NCBI GenBank assembly: GCA_963667925.1
Contig: OY764080.1
Location: 2,379,226-2,443,225, forward strand
Length of the DNA: 64,000 bases
Reading direction: 5' to 3'
Origin: Chloroflexota bacterium
GTDB taxonomy: Bacteria > Chloroflexota > UBA11872
Below the pieces are notes generated by a model. It had not been told where the DNA came from and did no database searches. It was given only the letters and a program-made list of their open reading frames with translations. Positions within the stretch are counted from its first letter, which is position 1, and every line of letters starts with the position of its first letter. The translations under genes and the position numbers were made by a program. This document shows, piece after piece, positions 3,750 through 64,000 of the stretch.

Positions 3750-6700
3750 TTAGGCCGCAGGCGTTCGCACGATGTGCGCCGGCACGTCCTGAACGGCGCG
3801 CTCGGCCCAGTGTGGGTCGGCGGTGAAGAGGAACACCTGCCGGTCGCCGGGCATGTTGGCCAATGCTGCAAGGCCGCTGGCGGTCCGTCCCGGATCCCAG
3901 TTGACGAACATCTCATCGAGGAACAGCGGCAGCGGCTCGTCACCTTCCACGAGATCGACCATGGCCAGCCGCAACGCGAAGTAAATCTGTTGAATCGTCC
4001 CGCGGCTCAGCGGCGTATCCACATCCTGAGGAAAGTCCTCGCCGGTCCGCCGAACCTGGAGATTGGCCCCCGAAGAACTGGCGTCGTCGACACTCAGCAG
4101 GTCATATCGTTCGTGCGTGAAGCCGCGTAGGTATCGGCCCGCCACAGAGAGCAATGGCGACTGATATCGGTCGCGATACGACGTGTCGGCTTCCTGCACC
4201 AGCTTCTGCAGAAGGGCTACCCGGTCGTGCTCCCGGCGCACGAAATCCAGGCGCTCCTCCGCAGCTCTGATGGCACCCATTATGTGAGCAGGCCCCGGCT
4301 CGTCCATCCACCGATTGCGCTCCGTAGTTATTCTGCCGCGCTCATCCGCCAGGTCTTGGGCTGTCCGTCGCAGCTCCTCTGCTTCACGTCGGCTCTCAAC
4401 CCGTTCAGCGTCGCTGAGACCTATCTGAACGCCACCGTCCAGAAGCTGCTCGGCCTCGACGAATCGCTGCCGCCAGTCGGGGACGTCGCGCTCAAGCTCA
4501 AGCAGTACGCGTCGTGCTTCGGCGCGCAGATCGAACGCATGCAGCACCCGCTCGAGTCCAACCTCGGGGTTGGCACCGTGCGGATCAACGACGGCGAGTG
4601 AGGCGTCGATTCGTTCGAGTTTGACGTGACCATCGTCAAGCTCCTCGCCACAAGCCTCAAGCTGCTGGCGGAGGCCTGGAATCTCGGCATCTGCGATGTT
4701 GGCAATACGTTTGGTTTCCAACGCGTCTTCCAGCGCCCGCCGCGCGGCTGGCGCCGCCTCGAAGGGGTCAACGGGCAGTTCAATTGCGAGTTCCTCCCGC
4801 AGGCGTGTCACCCCGTCGTACCAGGCCTTAAGACTTGCGGCCACTTGTCGCCTATTGCGGCGCAGACGTTGGGCGCTGCCTACAATCTGGCGCATGTCTT
4901 CCAGGTCTCGGACCATGGCTTCATTAGGCGTTTCACGCTGTACTGGCGCGATCGGCACGTCTGCAACTACTGACAGAAACTCCGCATGCGCCTCGCCGGA
5001 GGCCGTCGCGGCCCGCTCTACCTCGGCCTCCGCAGCCTCTAGCTCAGCCTGGCCTGCCTCGAGTTCCTGGCGCAGCCGCATCACGTCAGCCTTGGCTTGC
5101 TCTGCGGCGCGCTCAACCTCCAGCGCATCCTGAAGCGCCCGCCGCGCGGCCGGTGCCGAGTCGAAAGGATCTACCGGCAGGTCGCGCCCAAGCGTCGGCA
5201 TCAACCGCTCGACTTCGTCTCGCCAGGCGGCCAGCCGTGAAGCCACAGCTTCTCGATTTCGCCGCAGTCGCTCGGCACTGCTCAGCATCAGACGCATCTC
5301 TTCTAAGTCGCGGACCAAGCCCTCATCAGGAGTCTCATGCTGTACTGGCGCGATCGGCACATCCGCAACTACCGACAGAAACTCCGCATGCGCTTTGCTC
5401 GCTGCCGTAGCGGCCCGCTCAACCTCGGCCTCCGCCGCCTCTAGCTCCGCCTGGCCTGCCTCAAGTTCCTGGCGCAGCCGCATCACGTCAGCCTTGGCTT
5501 GCTCTGCGGCGCGCTCAACCTCCAGCGCATCCTGTAGTGCCCGCCGCGCGGCCGGTGTCGCCTCGAAAGGGTTTTCCGGCAGGTCGCGCCCAATCGTCGG
5601 CGTCAACCGCTCGACTTCGCCTCGCCAGGCGGCCAGCCGTGTTGCCACAGCTTCTCGATTTCGCCGCAGTCGCTCGGCGCTGCTCAGCATCAGACGCATC
5701 TCTTCTAGGTCGCGAAGCAGCCCCTCGTCCGGCGCCTCGAGGTGAATCCGAGCGACGGGGACATCCGCAACTACCGTTAGAAACTTCTCGTGCGCCCTCT
5801 CGGCCGTTCTTTCGTTGGCCATGACGCGCTCACGTGCTTCGACTTCGGATTCCTTCGCGTCTGCCATTTGCTCGAGCACGTCGTCGCGCCGCATGGCGGC
5901 GTCTCGACTTTTCTGAGTCCGCTTGACCTCGGCCTCAAGATCGGCGTCGAACTCGAGCCCTAGTCGATGGAGCCGCGATTCCAATCCGACGCTGGCCTTC
6001 TTCTGACGTCGGCGCGACCAACTTTTATTCGCAGCGACGGAAGCAACTACGGTCAGCACAGCCGCCACTGCAACAATGACAAGCACCCCAATCGGCGCGC
6101 TAAACGCGAAGGTAAATGAGAGGGCCAGCGCGCCGAGCAGGATCGGTATCGCTATCCAGGCAGCTGCATTCAGCGTCACCGGAGCCGAGATCAGAGCCTG
6201 GTAACGCGCAATGTGGTGGAGTTCTCGCAACCGGTCGTCGAGTTCAGCGCGGCTGTGCTCGGTCGCGACGGACTCAAGTCTCCGCTTCAAGCGGGCGCGA
6301 TTTGACTCAGCAGCTTGAAAGTCAACAACGGCGGCAGCCCGCTGCCGCACCGCAGCCTGCAGATTGGCAAAGCGTCCGCGCAATTCGCCCACAGAGAGCT
6401 TGAGCACCGCAATCCGCGTGTCTGCATCGACCTGATCCGTTCTCAGTATCCGTCCGGCAATCTCGCGCAGAGAGTCGTTGATGCCACGCGCCTCGGAATC
6501 AATGCTCGCAAGGCTCTCCTGGTTTTCCTGAGCACGGGAGAGTTCGCGGTCGAGACGCTCAATGTCAGTGCGAGCACCTAGCAGCGCAAGCATCCGATCC
6601 TCGATCTCGAGCGCCTGTTCACGCTCCTCAATCGCGAGTTGGGTTTCCCGTTGCTGAACCTGGAGTTGCACCAGACGATCACTAACCGACTGCACCTCTT

Positions 6701-8231
6701 GCCGGGACTCCCGCCACGCGGCGAAGCGCCCTCGTAACTCGGCCACCGAGATCGTGAGGAGTGCTCTGCGGGTAGCAGAGTCAATCTGATCGCACGTGAG
6801 CGTGCGCCCGGCGACTTCACGGAGTGCGCCGTCGCTGCGTTGCAGCTCTGCATTCATGCTCCGCACCCGGTCTTGGTTTTCCTGCGCGCGCGATGTCTCG
6901 CGGTCCAAGCGTTCGATATCCTCACGGACCTCCAGAAGCGCGCAGGTACCAACGTCAACCTCCAGCGCGGCTTCGCGGTCCGCGATCCTCTTACAGATGT
7001 CGTCTTGCCCAGACTGAAGCCGCTTCAGGCGACTATCCGCTGCGTCAAGCAGATTCCGGGAATCCCGCCAGCCGGCGAAGCGCCCACGCAATTCGACCAC
7101 TGAGAGTTCGTTAATCGCGCGGCAGACGCCTTCGTCAAGCTGTTCCACTGTGAGCACGCGCGCCGCCAGTTCTTGCAGCCCACCGTCGCTGCGCTGCAAC
7201 TCACTATCCATGCTCCTGATGCGATCACGATCCTCTTGCGCGCGAGACAGCTCGCGGTCCAGTCGCTCGACATCAGCGCGGGCAACCAAGAGACGGCGGA
7301 TTCCCGCCTCAACTTCACGCGCCTTCTCGCGCTTCGCGATCTTCACCCGAAGATCCTTCCGCTGTGCCGTGAGCTTCTCCGAGCGATCACGAAGTCTCGC
7401 TCGCTCTTCGGCGACACCGTCCCAGGTGTCGCCTCCGGGTGCCAGGTCCGCAGCCCGTGCTTCGAGTCCACGAAGACGGCCGACCCGTCGAACCAGAGGT
7501 GCCAGCGTGCGGTCCCGCTCTAGCGCTAGCTCAATGCGCTGTAGTTTTCGTTCATTTGCTGCCAGGTCTGAGGCAATCCCCCGCAGTCGCTCATCTGCCT
7601 GCTCGATCCGGCCACGGTGCTCACGAGCCTCGGCCAGGCTCCCGCGCAACCGCCGAATCTGATCGGTAAGCTCGCGGTGTGCCGGCTTCCCGCGACGATC
7701 GGACCGCCAGAGGCGCCGGCGGTCAGCCTCCAGGGCACGCACGATTTCGCGCGATGGCCGCAGATAGTCAAATGGACTTCCACCCAGCAGATTCTGCACG
7801 GCCTGCCAAGCCTGCTGATCAAGCCGGAGCGCCTCGTCTTGAGTCAAGGCATACACGTTCTTGAAGACGGCGCGGTCCATGAGGCCAGTCCAAGGAACCT
7901 GTCGATTGGCAAGATCGCCCTCGTCGCTGTTAATCCTGATTCGTCCAAACGGCCGCGCTCGGAGTCGACGTGCAACGCTAGCCAGATCGCCGTTGCGCAG
8001 CACAACATCCAGTCGACCGTGCGGATACTGTCCGCCCCAGGGTCGATAAGGATGGCCGTCGGCCGTGGCCGGAGAGAATCCGAACATTGCGCTGGTAAAA
8101 AACTCAAAGAGCGCGCTCTTCCCGGATTCGTTGGGACCGAGAACGACAACCACGTCATGGTCAGCAAGGCCCTTTGTCGACCAATCCGTGATTGGTCCAA
8201 AGTCAGCTATAGACCAACCCTCAACCCTCAC
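3750..8231 (-). CDS. Giant SMC/SbcC/Rad50-like AAA ATPase (YhaN/SbcF type, 1493 aa)
   Basis: N-terminal Walker A (VVVLGPNESGKSALFEFF); C-terminal signature LSRGTIQQIYFALRLAM and Walker B LPLFLDEMFVNWD. Between them, long coiled-coil arms with internal tandem repeats and a ~45-aa hydrophobic segment (AAWIAIPILLGALALSFTFAFSAPIGVLVIVAVAAVLTVVASVAA). 4-nt overlap with the upstream phosphoesterase gene. Confidence 0.8.
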   Translation of the reverse strand: MRVEGWSIADFGPITDWSTKGLADHDVVVVLGPNESGKSALFEFFTSAMFGFSPATADGHPYRPWGGQYPHGRLDVVLRNGDLASVARRLRARPFGRIRINSDEGDLANRQVPWTGLMDRAVFKNVYALTQDEALRLDQQAWQAVQNLLGGSPFDYLRPSREIVRALEADRRRLWRSDRRGKPAHRELTDQIRRLRGSLAEAREHRGRIEQADERLRGIASDLAANERKLQRIELALERDRTLAPLVRRVGRLRGLEARAADLAPGGDTWDGVAEERARLRDRSEKLTAQRKDLRVKIAKREKAREVEAGIRRLLVARADVERLDRELSRAQEDRDRIRSMDSELQRSDGGLQELAARVLTVEQLDEGVCRAINELSVVELRGRFAGWRDSRNLLDAADSRLKRLQSGQDDICKRIADREAALEVDVGTCALLEVREDIERLDRETSRAQENQDRVRSMNAELQRSDGALREVAGRTLTCDQIDSATRRALLTISVAELRGRFAAWRESRQEVQSVSDRLVQLQVQQRETQLAIEEREQALEIEDRMLALLGARTDIERLDRELSRAQENQESLASIDSEARGINDSLREIAGRILRTDQVDADTRIAVLKLSVGELRGRFANLQAAVRQRAAAVVDFQAAESNRARLKRRLESVATEHSRAELDDRLRELHHIARYQALISAPVTLNAAAWIAIPILLGALALSFTFAFSAPIGVLVIVAVAAVLTVVASVAANKSWSRRRQKKASVGLESRLHRLGLEFDADLEAEVKRTQKSRDAAMRRDDVLEQMADAKESEVEARERVMANERTAERAHEKFLTVVADVPVARIHLEAPDEGLLRDLEEMRLMLSSAERLRRNREAVATRLAAWRGEVERLTPTIGRDLPENPFEATPAARRALQDALEVERAAEQAKADVMRLRQELEAGQAELEAAEAEVERAATAASKAHAEFLSVVADVPIAPVQHETPDEGLVRDLEEMRLMLSSAERLRRNREAVASRLAAWRDEVERLMPTLGRDLPVDPFDSAPAARRALQDALEVERAAEQAKADVMRLRQELEAGQAELEAAEAEVERAATASGEAHAEFLSVVADVPIAPVQRETPNEAMVRDLEDMRQIVGSAQRLRRNRRQVAASLKAWYDGVTRLREELAIELPVDPFEAAPAARRALEDALETKRIANIADAEIPGLRQQLEACGEELDDGHVKLERIDASLAVVDPHGANPEVGLERVLHAFDLRAEARRVLLELERDVPDWRQRFVEAEQLLDGGVQIGLSDAERVESRREAEELRRTAQDLADERGRITTERNRWMDEPGPAHIMGAIRAAEERLDFVRREHDRVALLQKLVQEADTSYRDRYQSPLLSVAGRYLRGFTHERYDLLSVDDASSSGANLQVRRTGEDFPQDVDTPLSRGTIQQIYFALRLAMVDLVEGDEPLPLFLDEMFVNWDPGRTASGLAALANMPGDRQVFLFTADPHWAERAVQDVPAHIVRTPAA
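4540..5742. repeat. Intragenic tandem direct repeat, 3 x 402 bp (134 aa), in the C-terminal coiled-coil arm of the SMC-like ATPase
   Basis: Units starting at 4939 and 5341 begin with the identical ctgtactggcgcgatcggcac and are near-identical over long stretches. A third copy (~4540-4938) is more diverged. Confidence 0.85.
6440..7500. repeat. Intragenic tandem repeat, 3 x ~350 bp (~110-117 aa), in the N-terminal coiled-coil arm of the same gene
   Basis: Recurrent LERLDRELSRAQE(D/N)(R/Q)DR(I/V)RSM(D/N)(S/A)ELQRSDG(G/A)L(Q/R)E(L/V)A protein motif. DNA motif gcggtc(g/c)a(g/a)(a/t)cg(c/t)tc(a/g)a(t/c)at at ~6541, ~6891 and ~7245. Confidence 0.7.
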
Positions 8232-60014: not shown

Positions 60015-60983
60015 GTGCTCGTGAGTACCACGGACAACGGAATGTTGTTGCGTGCCGGTGGGGTGATGCACCGGTATGGGGACCTGACGGCAGTGAACGA
60101 CGTCTCGCTGGCGGTACGGCGGGGCGAGGTGTTCGGGTTGCTGGGTCCGAACGGGGCGGGCAAGTCGACGCTGATCGGGATTCTCTGCGGCATGTTTGCG
60201 CCCACGGCCGGAAATGTGCACCTGGGCGACGTGCCGATTACGCCGGGAGCGCGGAGCGCCAAGCGACGGATTGGCGTGGTGCCGCAGGACATTGCGCTGT
60301 ACGAGAAGCTGAGCGGCCGGCAGAACCTGCGGTTTTTTGGGCGGGTCTACGGCCTGGGCGGCCGCCGCCTGCGCGAGCGGGTGGAGGCGGTGCTGGACGT
60401 CGTGGGGCTGAGCGATCGGGGGAACGATCAGGCCGGGACGTATTCGGGAGGCATGCAGCGGCGGCTGAACCTGGCGGCGGGGCTGCTGCACGAGCCGGAA
60501 CTCTTGGTCCTTGACGAGCCGACGGTGGGGGTGGACCCGCAGAGCCGGAATCACATCTTCGACAACGTGGAGCGGCTGAATCGCGATCAGGGCGTGACGA
60601 TCGTCTATACGACGCACTACATGGAAGAGGCGGAACGGCTGTGCGACCGGGTGGCGATCATCGACCACGGCAAGATCGTGGCGCTGGATACGCCACGGGC
60701 GCTGATCGAGTCGCTGGGCGGCGGGGTAATCCAGCTCGGAATCGATCCGGAGCAGCGAGCGCAGGTGACGAACTCCCTGGCGTCGCTGGCGTCGGTGCAG
60801 GCCGTGGGGCCGGGGCCGGACGAGCGGTCGCTGAACATCGAAGCAGCCAGCGCGCGGCACGCGCTGGTGGACGTGATGCTGGCGATGAACACGGCGGCGC
60901 TGGAAGTGGAGACCGTGCGAATCCTGGAGCCGAACCTGGAGAGCGTATTCCTGCGCTTTACGGGTCGCCGGCTGAGGGACTGA
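60015..60983 (+). CDS. ABC-2 type exporter ATP-binding protein (DrrA-like)
   Basis: Walker [10 protein letters not shown], signature YSGGMQRRL, Walker B LLVLDEPT. Confidence 0.9.
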
Positions 60984-60986
60984 GCG

Positions 60987-62249
60987 ATGCGGGTAACGCT
61001 GGCCTTCACGATCAAGGAGTTCCTGCTGCTGCTGCGGGATCCGGGCGGCCTGTTTGTGCTGTTCCTGATGCCGGTGATGTTCATGGTGGTCTTCAGCCTG
61101 GCGCTGGGCGGGCTGTTTGAGGAAGGCGCGGCTGAAGGTTCGGCCAGGGCGCTGGAGGTACCGGTGGCGACGGGCGGCGCGGGCGAGGTGGCCGAACGGG
61201 TGGTGGAGCAACTGGACGCAACGCAAGGACTGGCCATTGTTCGCGAGCAGGACGGTGAGGCGCTAACGGCGGATCAGGTGGCTCAGTTGGTGGCGGACGG
61301 CGAGTACCCGGTGGGGGTCGTTTTCCCCGAAGGACTAACGACACTCCTGGAAGATCCGCGCATCCTCCGGGGCGAGCAGGTACAGCCGCTGGAGGTAGAC
61401 GTCATTGTGGATCCGGCAACCACAGGGCAGGTGACGGGTCCGCTGGAGGGCGCGTTGAGCGCGGTTCTACAACAGGTCGTGGGCCAGCGGCTGGGCGAGG
61501 CGGGGGCGGCGGCCTGGTTCGAGCAGGTAGCCGCTGGTCTGCCGGCCGAGGTTCGCGAACAGCTGGCGGCGTCGATGCAGCAGGGCGGTGAGGGAGAGGG
61601 CGCCCTGCCCGTGACGACGCGGCGGCGAGTTCCGCCGGGGGTCGAGCGCGAGCAGTTCCCGGACCAATTCCAGCAGAACGCGGCCGGTTACACGGTTATG
61701 GGGGTGTTTTTCATCGCCACGGTGATGATCGAGTCGATCTTCCGGGAGCGGCGGAGCGGGGCGATGCGACGCCTGCGGGCCGCGCCGGTGGGTCGGGCGC
61801 CGATCGTGATCAGCAAGCTGGCGCCGTTCTACGTGGTGAACCTGATCCAGATCGTGATCATGTTTGCGATCGCGCGGCTGGCGTTTGGGCTGGACCTGGG
61901 GTTTGTGCCGGCGCTGGTGGTGGTATCGGCGGCGCTGGCGCTGGTGGCCACGGGGCTGGGAATAGCGTTGGCCGGAGTCTCGCGCTCGGAGACGCAGGGG
62001 ACGGGCCTGGCGGTGATCGTGGTGCTGACGACGTCGGCGCTGGGCGGGGTGATGGTGCCGCGCTTCATCATGCCCGAGGCGATGCAGCAGATCGGCAACA
62101 TCACACCGCAAGCCTGGGCGATCCAGGGCTATCAGGACGTGCTGGTGCGCGGCCAGGGCGTCGGCGGCGTGTGGCTGGAAGCGGGCGTGCTGCTGATCTT
62201 TGCGGCAGTGTTCACAGCGATCGGAATCTGGCGGTTTCGGTTCGACTGA
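60987..62249 (+). CDS. ABC-2 type exporter permease (DrrB/YhgE-like, large extracytoplasmic loop)
   Basis: N-terminal TM, long periplasmic loop, then an ABC-2 membrane domain with ~5 TM segments. Confidence 0.85.
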   Translation: MRVTLAFTIKEFLLLLRDPGGLFVLFLMPVMFMVVFSLALGGLFEEGAAEGSARALEVPVATGGAGEVAERVVEQLDATQGLAIVREQDGEALTADQVAQLVADGEYPVGVVFPEGLTTLLEDPRILRGEQVQPLEVDVIVDPATTGQVTGPLEGALSAVLQQVVGQRLGEAGAAAWFEQVAAGLPAEVREQLAASMQQGGEGEGALPVTTRRRVPPGVEREQFPDQFQQNAAGYTVMGVFFIATVMIESIFRERRSGAMRRLRAAPVGRAPIVISKLAPFYVVNLIQIVIMFAIARLAFGLDLGFVPALVVVSAALALVATGLGIALAGVSRSETQGTGLAVIVVLTTSALGGVMVPRFIMPEAMQQIGNITPQAWAIQGYQDVLVRGQGVGGVWLEAGVLLIFAAVFTAIGIWRFRFD

Positions 62250-62505
62250 GGACAAGGCGCTAGGCTCGACTACGCTGTTGGCTCAGGTTTCTCCAGAAGT
62301 CGGGATTCAGACGGGCGACGGCGCTGACCGCATGATTCCAGGCGCACCGCGATCAGAGCGTTGACGACGAGCTGACCGACTGCCTGGTTTGCTGGCATCA
62401 CTCAAATGACCATGCGCTTTCGCTCATAAAACGCACATAACACGTCGATGCTTGACAATGGCTGGCCTTCAAGGCAATGTATCGGCAATTCGAAAAGGAG
62501 CAACA

Positions 62506-62598
62506 ATGACCCATCAAAGAGCATGCTTATTAGTAATGTATCATGATACTTACACTCAATCATACACGACCACAATAGAAGATCTTAGGCACTGCTAA
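62506..62598 (+). CDS. Candidate 30-codon leader/small ORF (MTHQRACLLVMYHDTYTQSYTTTIEDLRHC) with strong SD, rare TTA-TTA codons, and TAATG coupling to the downstream gene
   Basis: SD AAAAGGAG 5 nt upstream of the ATG at 62506. Stop TAA (62596-62598) overlaps the ATG at 62598. Codon usage is extremely AT-rich for this genome. Confidence 0.4.
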   Translation: MTHQRACLLVMYHDTYTQSYTTTIEDLRHC

Positions 62599-63899
62599 TG
62601 CTACGCAAAAGGATAGGCAATCAGGCGCATCGGAATGGTGGTGTGCAGTTGGGGGAGGCTCGGGCTATGACGGAGACGTTGAGAATGCGCGAACAGCGAC
62701 GGTCAACAGTTTGGGAACGAGTCCGGCTTGGGCTGGCGGCCGTTGCCGCGGCCAGCCTGACGATTGCGGGGCCAGTGACCGCGTTGCGGGCGCTGGACTG
62801 TGTGGGCATACCCATCAGCGACGGCTGCCTGTTTGCCAACACCGGCGGCGACACGCCTGATCCGAACGACGGGTATGCCGTGACCAACGCCGATAGCGTC
62901 CCGATGTGGGACTTCGTACGCGAGGCTGAGGCTGAGGCCATTGGATACCCGATCAGTCAGCGCTGGCTGGACGGACCGTTCACGCTGCAGGCATTCCAGA
63001 AGGTGATTCTGCAGTGGGACCCGGCCAACGCACGGATGAACTACTACAACACGCTGGACGTGTTGGCCAACCGCTACCCGCACATCGAGCTGCCCAACGT
63101 GCCGGCGCACCAGGTGCTGGCGGCGGACGTAGGCGCGGACTTCGAGACGGTCAAGCAGAACCACCTCGCGATCCTGGATGAGAACCCCGGAATCAAGGCG
63201 CGGTTCCTTGGCGAACCGGACTGGCTCAACCTGTACGGGCTGCCGATTCGGTACGAGGAACGGGAAGTCGATGGCAATCCGCAGGGACTGCAACTGCTGC
63301 GCGCGCAGCGGGCCGTGTTCGCGGTCTGGAACGTGCCAGCGCCCGGGACGACCCCTGGCGAGGTAGTGCTTCAGAACCTTCCGGACAAGGTAAAGCAACT
63401 GAGCAACGTGATTGTTCCCGACGCGACCGAGGCGCCCCTGACGCCCGGGCAGCTGAACGCATTTGAGCCGCAGCAGATACACCGACGCTCCGATGAGGAC
63501 GAGGGCAGCGGCGACGACGAGCGTGCGGTCGACGACCCGCCCGGGACGGACAACGACGGCTTTGACACGACCGCCAATACCGACCACGACGGCTTCGATA
63601 CCACCGCCAATACCGATCACGATGGTTTGGACACGACGGCCAACACCGACAATGACGGAGTCGACACCACCGCGAACACCGATCACGATGGTTTCGACAC
63701 CACCGCCAATACCGACCACGACGGCTTTGATACCACGGCCAACACTGACTACGACGGATTCGACACGACGGCCAACACCGACCACGACGGTTTCGACACC
63801 ACCGCGAATACCGACCATGACGGCTTCGACACCACAGGCAATGAGAACGAGGACACCGACGACACTGCTGAGGACGACAGCGAAGACGACAGCGATTAG
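62598..63899 (+). CDS. Secreted protein with C-terminal acidic tandem repeats (9 x DHDGFDTTANT) and Asp/Glu-rich tail
   Basis: Signal-peptide-like LGLAAVAAASLTIAGPVTALRA; N-terminal domain of unknown function; 11-aa repeats with an EF-hand/DxDxDG-like N-x-D-x-D-G core. An alternative start is the ATG at 62667. Confidence 0.6.
   Translation: MLRKRIGNQAHRNGGVQLGEARAMTETLRMREQRRSTVWERVRLGLAAVAAASLTIAGPVTALRALDCVGIPISDGCLFANTGGDTPDPNDGYAVTNADSVPMWDFVREAEAEAIGYPISQRWLDGPFTLQAFQKVILQWDPANARMNYYNTLDVLANRYPHIELPNVPAHQVLAADVGADFETVKQNHLAILDENPGIKARFLGEPDWLNLYGLPIRYEEREVDGNPQGLQLLRAQRAVFAVWNVPAPGTTPGEVVLQNLPDKVKQLSNVIVPDATEAPLTPGQLNAFEPQQIHRRSDEDEGSGDDERAVDDPPGTDNDGFDTTANTDHDGFDTTANTDHDGLDTTANTDNDGVDTTANTDHDGFDTTANTDHDGFDTTANTDYDGFDTTANTDHDGFDTTANTDHDGFDTTGNENEDTDDTAEDDSEDDSD
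63547..63843. repeat. Tandem 33-bp coding repeat x9 (ACCGACCACGACGGCTTCGACACCACCGCCAAT consensus)
   Basis: Read directly from the sequence; copies differ at a few synonymous or conservative positions. Confidence 0.9.
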
Positions 63900-64000
63900 G
63901 CGGTGACCGTCTCCAAGGTGACCTCCGTGGCGCTTGCACCCCGGATCGATTTCCCCGCCGATCGCGGAGTTCGGGCACTGCAGCGACTGTTCGACGGCGC

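Follow-up and report, generated by a model that had tools for sequence, protein, structure and literature searches.

We describe a gene at the right end of a 64,000-nt stretch of DNA from a sponge-associated Chloroflexota bacterium (contig OY764080.1, class UBA2235, family UBA11872; below, the window means this whole stretch). Its product has two unlike halves: a conserved N-terminal domain, and a C-terminal part made of an acidic linker, nine tandem 11-residue units and a poly-acidic tail. The repeat peptide is under selection, the number of units varies strongly among close relatives, and the N-terminal domain belongs to a large, expanded family in which it is joined to many other C-terminal partners. 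Taking the evidence together we lean, with some reserve, towards a protein exported through Sec and probably anchored to the wall, whose variable polyanionic tail would bind cations. Wall-anchored exoproteins and Asp-rich cation-binding repeats are known in themselves; the acidic tail is one passenger of a large family.

Coding sequence and repeat array

The elements of the gene are listed below; a slash in a sequence marks the predicted signal peptidase cut.

62651..62658, + strand: Shine-Dalgarno-like GGGGGAGG, 8 nt 5' of the ATG at 62667 (read from the sequence)
62667..63899, + strand: most likely coding sequence, 410 aa plus stop; orthologues begin at the equivalent Met
62667..62789, + strand: signal peptide region, with n-region RMREQRRS, core LGLAAVAAASLTIA and a signal peptidase I-like site ALRA/LDC (inspection)
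62790..63425, + strand: conserved N-terminal domain of 211 aa (aa 65-276), tandem LGFP-like fold, putative envelope-binding anchor
62943..63077, + strand: core of the first LGFP-like unit (aa 116-160), invariant G-Y-P then FTLQAFQKVILQW (hhalign)
63237..63404, + strand: core of the second LGFP-like unit (aa 214-269), invariant G-L-P then LQLLRAQRAVFAVW (hhalign)
63426..63545, + strand: linker of 40 aa, Pro/Gln-rich, then acidic (…RRSDEDEGSGDDERAVDDPPG) (translation)
63546-63842, + strand: nine tandem 33-bp/11-aa units, T-D-[HNY]-D-G-[FLV]-D-T-T-[AG]-N (Tandem Repeats Finder, TRF; unit table)
63843..63896, + strand: poly-acidic C-terminal tail ENEDTDDTAEDDSEDDSD, in all full-length orthologues (translation)
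63897-63899, + strand: stop codon ending the acidic-repeat gene

The window's list of open reading frames (ORFs) gives one of 433 aa at 62598..63899 on the forward strand. Translation likely starts at ATG 62667 (Met24) rather than at the ORF start, because GGGGGAGG stands 8 nt before it, NCBI and ENA assemblies record precisely this 410-aa product, and the equivalent Met is the start in most orthologues. An earlier reading of this DNA, made from the letters alone (the sequence-only reading), had proposed the 433-aa ORF, nine in-frame 11-aa units and a poly-acidic tail; all three are real, with the units shifted by one base from the 63547-63843 given then. It had also called the 33-bp units near-perfect, which is true of the peptide and not of the DNA: in pairs the units share only 23-30 of 33 bases (70-91%), and units 2, 5 and 8 are most similar to each other (29-30 of 33). 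At the peptide level they read TDNDGFDTTAN, TDHDGFDTTAN (five times), TDHDGLDTTAN, TDNDGVDTTAN and TDYDGFDTTAN, with a last unit that ends in GN. TRF places the array at 63549-63835 with a period of 33 and 8.7 copies (79% matches, score 343), and offers a second reading of the same array with a period of 99 and 2.9 copies (84% matches).

When the units are compared pairwise, the 228 base differences are distributed over the first, second and third codon positions as 28, 8 and 192. Differences between codon pairs are synonymous in 172 cases versus 43 non-synonymous, the latter limited to unit positions 3, 6 and 10. This excess at third positions proves the reading frame of the repeats; an array that is non-coding in the correct frame (indel) was what the sequence-only reading had named as a refutation. 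Since 192 of the 228 differences lie at third positions, conservation acts on the repeat peptide, not on the DNA, and the peptide is under selection. Two long antisense ORFs (62703..63818 and 63226..63978) were considered and rejected as by-products of GC-rich repeats, as the variation tracks the third positions of the forward frame.

The 11-residue register is strictly kept, with a fixed Gly, a single hydrophobic residue and a Thr-Thr pair. From the orthologues we extracted 195 units with the pattern.D.DG.D...., which fixes D2, D4, G5 and D7 in advance, so that their invariance cannot be read from this set; among the free positions T1 (183), T8 (176), T9 (158) and N11 (147) are strongly preferred, and the consensus is T-D-[H/N/R]-D-G-F-D-T-T-[A/G]-N. 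The last 138 aa of the window protein contain 41 Asp, 7 Glu and 29 Thr (35% Asp/Glu), with a net charge of -45. Among the 344 proteins examined, the 11-aa repeat is confined to the orthologue group.

Copy number among relatives

Among 5.8 billion proteins searched, 291 relatives of the window protein were retrieved. The 25 best are full-length orthologues (69-87% identity), all sharing the N-terminal domain, the acidic linker, 3-14 of the 11-aa units and the poly-acidic end; loci from GTDB species genomes add alleles of 6-15 units, which brings the orthologue range to 3-15. The cluster at >=90% identity with the window protein comprises 11 sequences, with copy numbers of 6, 7, 9 (four times), 10, 11 and 12 (three times). 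At the closest locus (L002, OZ242271.1), which has 96.1% DNA identity over 3951 colinear bp, the array (3757-4109) differs from ours by exactly 99 bp, that is, 6 units in L002 and 9 in the window; the indel matches the higher-order TRF period of 99 bp. The spread of 6-12 copies within the >=90% cluster, together with this 99-bp difference, establishes that the copy number is hypervariable, in single-unit and three-unit steps. The sequence-only reading had expected such variation and had made its case depend on the homologues having acidic repeats; the variation is found, and the repeats are kept by all orthologues.

In two orthologues, P0012 (aa ~375-422) and P0018 (aa ~305-329), the frame is lost within the array, giving …TTASTPPTTRSRRGRH… and …QRRLRHHGQHRSRW…, respectively; the cause may be indels introduced into the repeats by assembly, or the frameshift alleles may be genuine.

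Export

The N-terminus has basic residues followed by LGLAAVAAASLTIAGPVTALRA/LDC. The basic n-region, the hydrophobic h-region and a small residue at -1 (site GPVTALRA/LDC) are those of a Sec signal cleaved by signal peptidase I. In a hydropathy scan 110 of 121 family members likewise show a pre-domain 12-mer with a Kyte-Doolittle mean >=1.6, typically ending …WPSAA/ALDC. The protein is thus very probably exported via Sec, as its features predict, and its earlier description as secreted is upheld. Two other routes were rejected: Tat export, as the RR pair is not conserved among orthologues, and a lipoprotein, as the residue before Cys is Asp and not Gly, Ala or Ser, which leaves no lipobox.

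The N-terminal domain and its family

The N-terminal part had been taken for an uncharacterised domain of about 280 aa. The actual domain is shorter (211 aa, aa 65-276) and is followed by the 40-aa acidic linker, which is conserved in orthologues only. Nor is it without relatives: we consider it an LGFP-like putative wall anchor of a large passenger-swapping family and the more informative half of the protein. Within its 211-aa block 53 columns are invariant, among them C68, C77, G116, P118 and G214-L215-P216; Cys68 and Cys77 are conserved within the sponge clade, and the pair sits just past the predicted cleavage site. The first half of the domain matches the second in hhalign (E 2.4e-5), GYP…QAFQKxxLQW being aligned with GLP…RAQRAVFxxW, so the domain is an internal duplication.

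AlphaFold2 (AF2) modelled the domain alone, from an alignment of 58 sequences (30-78% identity), with a predicted local distance difference test (pLDDT) score of 94.5 and a predicted template modelling score (pTM) of 0.88; the full-length protein with an alignment of close paralogues gave a pLDDT of 47.6. Exchanging 120 close paralogues for 57 diverse domain-only sequences raised the pLDDT of the domain from ~30-70 to 94.5; what made the difference for AF2 was how diverse the alignment was, not how deep.

In the model the domain is predicted to form tandem units of ~54 residues, each with an alpha-helix and an antiparallel sheet of 3-4 strands, which is the build of an LGFP unit (PMC11299179). 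The segments I-G-Y-P (aa 115-118) and Y-G-L-P (aa 213-216), whose G and P are invariant, appear to stand at the place of the motif that gave LGFP its name. The nearest known system for the domain is the LGFP domain (PF08310) of Corynebacterium glutamicum mycoloyltransferase A (MytA)/PS1 (PDB 6SWZ, 6SX4); the LGFP domains of MytA bind peptidoglycan-arabinogalactan in pull-downs (summarised in PMC11299179).

Sequence searches are less telling. Pfam and NCBIfam with the whole window protein yielded nothing beyond a chance CsgB match (E 0.01, 15.6 bits against a cutoff of 165), and PDB sequence searches with the protein and with the domain profile returned noise only. The LGFP profile itself has no match to the window protein at E<=10 (gathering score 22 bits); it weakly matches 5 of the 58 domain relatives, with a best E of 0.0037. 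We infer that the domain is a distant relative of LGFP, uncatalogued in Pfam, NCBIfam and PDB sequence space.

Relatives from the 26th best downwards have only query aa 65-276 in common (65-78% identity) and end in unlike C-termini. Among the 95 listed paralogues these passengers include leucine-rich repeats (LRR; 28), RCC1 (5) and PD40 beta-propellers (6); other C-termini consist of a ~500-aa domain ending in RWYYGP, often with HExxH, or of nothing recognisable. When 1.84 billion cluster representatives were scanned exhaustively with HMMER, the domain turned up in 805 clusters at E<=1e-3, of which 495 remain at E<=1e-10; distant relatives show 30-45% identity and have the block at the N- or C-terminus. 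In 88 domain proteins the Pfam partners are Trypsin_2 with PDZ (HtrA-like; 7), Peptidase_M23 (4) and GH5 (3), followed by Amidase_2, Amidase_3, Sortase, GH113, Peptidase_M1, SdrD_B, fn3, cupredoxin and Excalibur (1-2 each where counted). Six peptidoglycan hydrolases and one sortase are thus among the 88 proteins scanned, and this list of partners fits a module aimed at the producer's own wall. In two distant relatives, P0290 and P0305, a signal peptide and the LGFP-like domain are joined through a Pro-rich linker to 1-3 Excalibur domains (…DADNNGIACE, DRDDDGYACE).

The AF2 model, the weak LGFP matches, the internal duplication, the apparent placement of Gly-x-Pro and the list of partners all point to the same reading, and by this analogy the domain is probably an LGFP-like envelope-binding module. 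In architecture it can be compared with the monoderm exoproteins anchored by SLH, LysM or CWB modules, which share a signal peptide and one envelope module with varied passengers; they differ in fold and family, and the window protein has no SLH, LysM or CW_binding match.

The family is strongly expanded in sponge Chloroflexota. Counted from the best 80 of the 462 matches in GTDB species genomes, the domain copies number at least 9 in OZ244789.1, at least 8 in isolate 1ab9ed6c, at least 6 in CBDEVI01 and at least 5 in COS3_bin_17; tblastn found no second copy elsewhere in the 64-kb window.

Several passengers have features of their own. The LRR passengers of the sponge-Chloroflexota family carry a plant-like N-cap (SDREALVxLYHATxGPNWxNNxNWLS). 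The RWYYGP passenger, of ~470-520 aa and without Pfam annotation (P0038, P0066, P0078, P0088, P0097 and others), runs from near …LPWVADGI… to RWYYGP; it is present in 17 of 121 aligned proteins, 10 of which contain HExxH. Peptidase_M1 matches occur in P0120 and in the distant P0189, and the RWYYGP passenger may be a divergent gluzincin. In P0182 a Tat-like signal and Amidase_2 are followed by the LGFP-like domain at the C-terminus.

Calcium motifs in the repeats

The sequence-only reading had compared the N-x-D-x-D-G core of the repeats with calcium-binding loops. The core is indeed present in 8 units, and in units 2-9 the loop has Asp at positions 3 and 5 and Gly at position 6, with another Asp two residues past the Gly. 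The first position is Asn where Dx[DN]xDG needs Asp, which is obligatory at that place (Rigden et al. 2011, PMC3123361). The relaxed pattern [DN]x[DN]xDG matches 8 times, always as N-T-D-x-D-G, whereas the strict Dx[DN]xDG, the PROSITE EF-hand loop PS00018 and the thrombospondin type 3 (TSP3)-like DxDxDGxxDxxDxC have zero matches in the repeats. Across the orthologues the first loop position is N in 125 cases, G in 31 and D in 21.

The kinship with EF-hand or TSP3 proposed at that time does not hold. The repeat regions of three orthologues, searched alone against Pfam at E<=10, had no EF-hand, TSP_3, dockerin or Excalibur match, and the whole protein has no Pfam match to these calcium families either; against PDB sequences the repeats by themselves yielded only noise. 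No dockerin-like pattern was matched in the repeats, no Cys occurs in aa 277-433, and the Excalibur motif DxDxDGxxCE is absent from the window protein (Pfam without a match, no Cys-Glu). The RTX nonapeptide GGxGxDxUx does not describe the units, which have a period of 11 and no GG. As to an EF-hand helix-loop-helix, the low-confidence model predicts no helices in aa 300-433, and the units are 11 residues long and contiguous. The suggested association with an S-layer likewise fell, the window protein having no Pfam match to SLH or another S-layer domain.

Four known systems share features with the repeats. With Dx[DN]xDG loops the repeats share the six-residue x-x-D-x-D-G core, the invariant Gly, downstream acidic residues and an extracellular bacterial setting, as in Excalibur; they differ in starting with Asn, in Asp at position 8 and Asn at 12, in having no Cys-Glu and no flanking helices, and in running head-to-tail every 11 residues, whereby neighbours would share residues. 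TSP3 repeats (PF02412, including the bacterial OmpA-associated versions) are also contiguous tandem Asp-rich DxDG units of extracellular proteins; the window repeats differ from them in the lack of a hidden Markov model match and of Cys, and in a period of 11 aa with other spacing. The Ca-dependent beta-rolls of RTX proteins (GGxGxDxUx) likewise consist of short Gly/Asp tandem units, with one hydrophobic position each, in secreted proteins, and are probably, like our array, disordered without Ca2+; their period is 9, and the window protein has a Sec signal and neither GG, a type I signal nor neighbouring genes of a type I secretion system. The ABC genes next to it are of the ABC-2 type and are placed ahead of a separate, presumed promoter region. 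By analogy with them, a period-11 Ca-dependent solenoid is possible.

Calsequestrin-type tails and the condensed-charge motif (PMC8391695) resemble our protein in their poly-Asp/Glu tail and in the very dense packing of negative charge, as well as in an expected affinity in the micromolar-millimolar range with many ions per chain. Their sequence and fold are unrelated, and the acidic part of the window protein differs in being strictly periodic and placed on a putative wall anchor. Asp-rich "Excalibur-like" and "condensed-charge" motifs of disordered proteins bind Ca2+ at about 100 uM (PMC8391695), and the window repeats resemble them. That the repeats bind Ca2+ or other divalent cations is plausible from charge and motif; binding at multiple sites is the reading we prefer, at about even odds.

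Discussion

We presume the following course of events. The 211-aa module, with its two diverged LGFP-like units, would most likely hold the protein on the envelope of the cell that makes it, by non-covalent binding to a wall polymer, on the model of the MytA LGFP domain of Corynebacterium on peptidoglycan-arabinogalactan. The flexible acidic C-terminal passenger (linker, nine units and poly-Asp/Glu tail) would most likely bind divalent cations, the candidates being Ca2+ or Mg2+ of seawater and of the sponge mesohyl. Many sites of low to moderate affinity could give a cation-loaded polyanionic layer at the cell surface, whose length would shift between strains as units are gained or lost through recombination or slippage. 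The notion of a passenger is supported by the same anchor bearing LRR, RCC1 or PD40 in close paralogues and Excalibur in distant relatives.

Several points weigh against this explanation. Arabinogalactan of the Corynebacterium kind is not expected in the wall of UBA11872, and nothing in the neighbouring genes (ABC-2 transporter, APH-like kinase) speaks for the proposed function. The repeat motif deviates from all defined Ca-binding loops by Asn in place of Asp at position 1; loop position 8 is Asp instead of a hydrophobic residue, and position 12 has no Glu or Asp. With Asn or Arg as alternatives to His at unit position 3, a metal role for His is not conserved. AF2 gives the repeats a pLDDT of 30-45, from a poor alignment and with ions not included.

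This low pLDDT is also what one would expect from the main rival, by which the repeats have no specific metal sites and form a disordered Thr/Asp-rich polyanionic spacer or "bristle", possibly Thr-O-glycosylated, in which only length and charge matter. Such a spacer would reach out from the wall and alter surface charge, hydration, or recognition by sponge cells or phages. The extreme composition (41 D and 29 T in 138 aa), the free change of copy number by single units and the lack of a match to a known metal-binding family agree with it. Composition alone would not, however, fix G5, F6, T8/T9 and N11, and it leaves the near-total synonymy of the nucleotide differences unexplained; a register kept exactly at 11 residues implies that structure or ligand binding constrains every unit. 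We therefore hold the spacer to be possible, though clearly less probable than the cation-binding passenger.

A second rival concerns the other half of the protein and makes the N-terminal domain a lectin or adhesin for glycans of the sponge matrix or of the diet, the protein being released or bridging to host material. It would suit a family much expanded in sponge-specific lineages with eukaryote-like passengers, and the GH5 and GH113 glycosidase partners, beside which such modules can be carbohydrate-binding modules. The domain is, however, widespread in Chloroflexota without an evident host link (e.g., Ardenticatenaceae metagenome-assembled genomes, MAGs; a judgement not taken from habitat data) and occurs in a few Actinobacteria; it is fused to M23, Amidase_2, Amidase_3 and sortase, whose substrate is the cell's own wall, and its sole structural relative binds the wall of its producer. 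We consider this rival quite unlikely. Least likely of all is that the repeats are EF-hand or TSP3 calcium loops of a Ca-binding, S-layer-associated protein, which N-x-D-x-D-G in 8 of 9 units, the Asp-rich region and the export would suit, and which, as family membership, is refuted by the missing profile matches at E<=10 (SLH included), motifs, cysteines, modelled flanking helices and PDB sequence relatives reported above.

Returning to the wall-anchored polyanion, the result defines a widespread domain that is absent from the domain and structure collections named above and is represented by the 805 clusters and the 462 copies in GTDB species genomes. The domain gains a testable role as a Chloroflexota counterpart of the actinobacterial LGFP wall anchor. 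To our knowledge, the attachment of proteins to the Chloroflexota envelope is largely unexplored.

Most sponge MAGs are without the secretion systems usually invoked for delivering eukaryote-like proteins (Robbins et al., PMC8163846). A concrete alternative is that a Sec signal and a wall anchor would display dozens of eukaryote-like LRR, RCC1 and propeller proteins on the surface, and the significance of the present observation would rise if the surface-display hypothesis for these sponge-symbiont proteins holds. The acidic-repeat array is a natural variable-number tandem repeat under peptide-level selection, hence a convenient strain marker, and the protein may contribute to Ca-dependent surface chemistry in the sponge host. 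Sponge cell adhesion is Ca2+-dependent.

It is tempting to go further and propose that the LGFP-like module is the common surface anchor of the expanded UBA11872 family, by which the symbiont would show eukaryote-like LRR, RCC1 and beta-propeller passengers on its own wall rather than inject them; that the acidic-repeat member is a Ca2+-dependent coat or adhesin, its array an undescribed 11-residue Ca-bound solenoid; and that the array length (6-12 units) tunes host recognition or evasion of phages and phagocytes. As a whole this proposal is speculative and, in our opinion, rather improbable.

Genomic context

The window has 65.5% GC. The features that flank the gene are as follows.

60015..62249, + strand: ABC-2 type transporter pair, ATPase 60015-60983 and permease 60987-62249 (Pfam ABC_tran, ABC2_membrane)
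62400..62600, no strand assigned: AT-rich intergenic stretch, 41.5% GC, presumed promoter/leader region (composition profile)
63903..64000, + strand: start (GTG) of the next gene, 3 nt past the stop and cut by the window end (translation)

The ABC-2 neighbours are shared with locus L001, and blastn matches to them are found in L002, L003 and L005. The AT-rich stretch is 98% identical to that of L002, against 96% for the coding DNA on its flanks; searches of this upstream region matched neither an Rfam family nor a sigma-70, promoter or terminator consensus. At the orthologous locus of P0002, L001 has a ferritin gene (7283-7771) between the ABC-2 permease and the acidic-repeat gene, and this insertion is absent from the window and from L002. 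An operon with the ABC-2 transporter was considered and is unlikely, given the 350-bp gap with the AT-rich stretch in between and the ferritin insertion at that place in L001. The downstream gene may be co-transcribed with the acidic-repeat gene, since only 3 nt separate them; in L001 it corresponds to an APH-family (PF01636) kinase.

The genomes bearing orthologues or paralogues include COS2_bin_4, COS3_bin_17, RHO2_bin_72 and RHO3_bin_23. These four bins are sponge MAGs, obtained from Coscinoderma matthewsi and Rhopaloeides odorabile (Robbins et al., supplement, PMC8163846), classified as Chloroflexota; c__UBA2235; o__UBA11872; f__UBA11872 (PMC8163846). UBA11872 genomes have 65.1% GC and are detected in corals and sponges only (PMC10608941). 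Elsewhere in the window, the ORF at 52861-54564 matches Trp_halogenase/FAD_binding_3 (E 6.9e-37) and is flavin-dependent halogenase-like.

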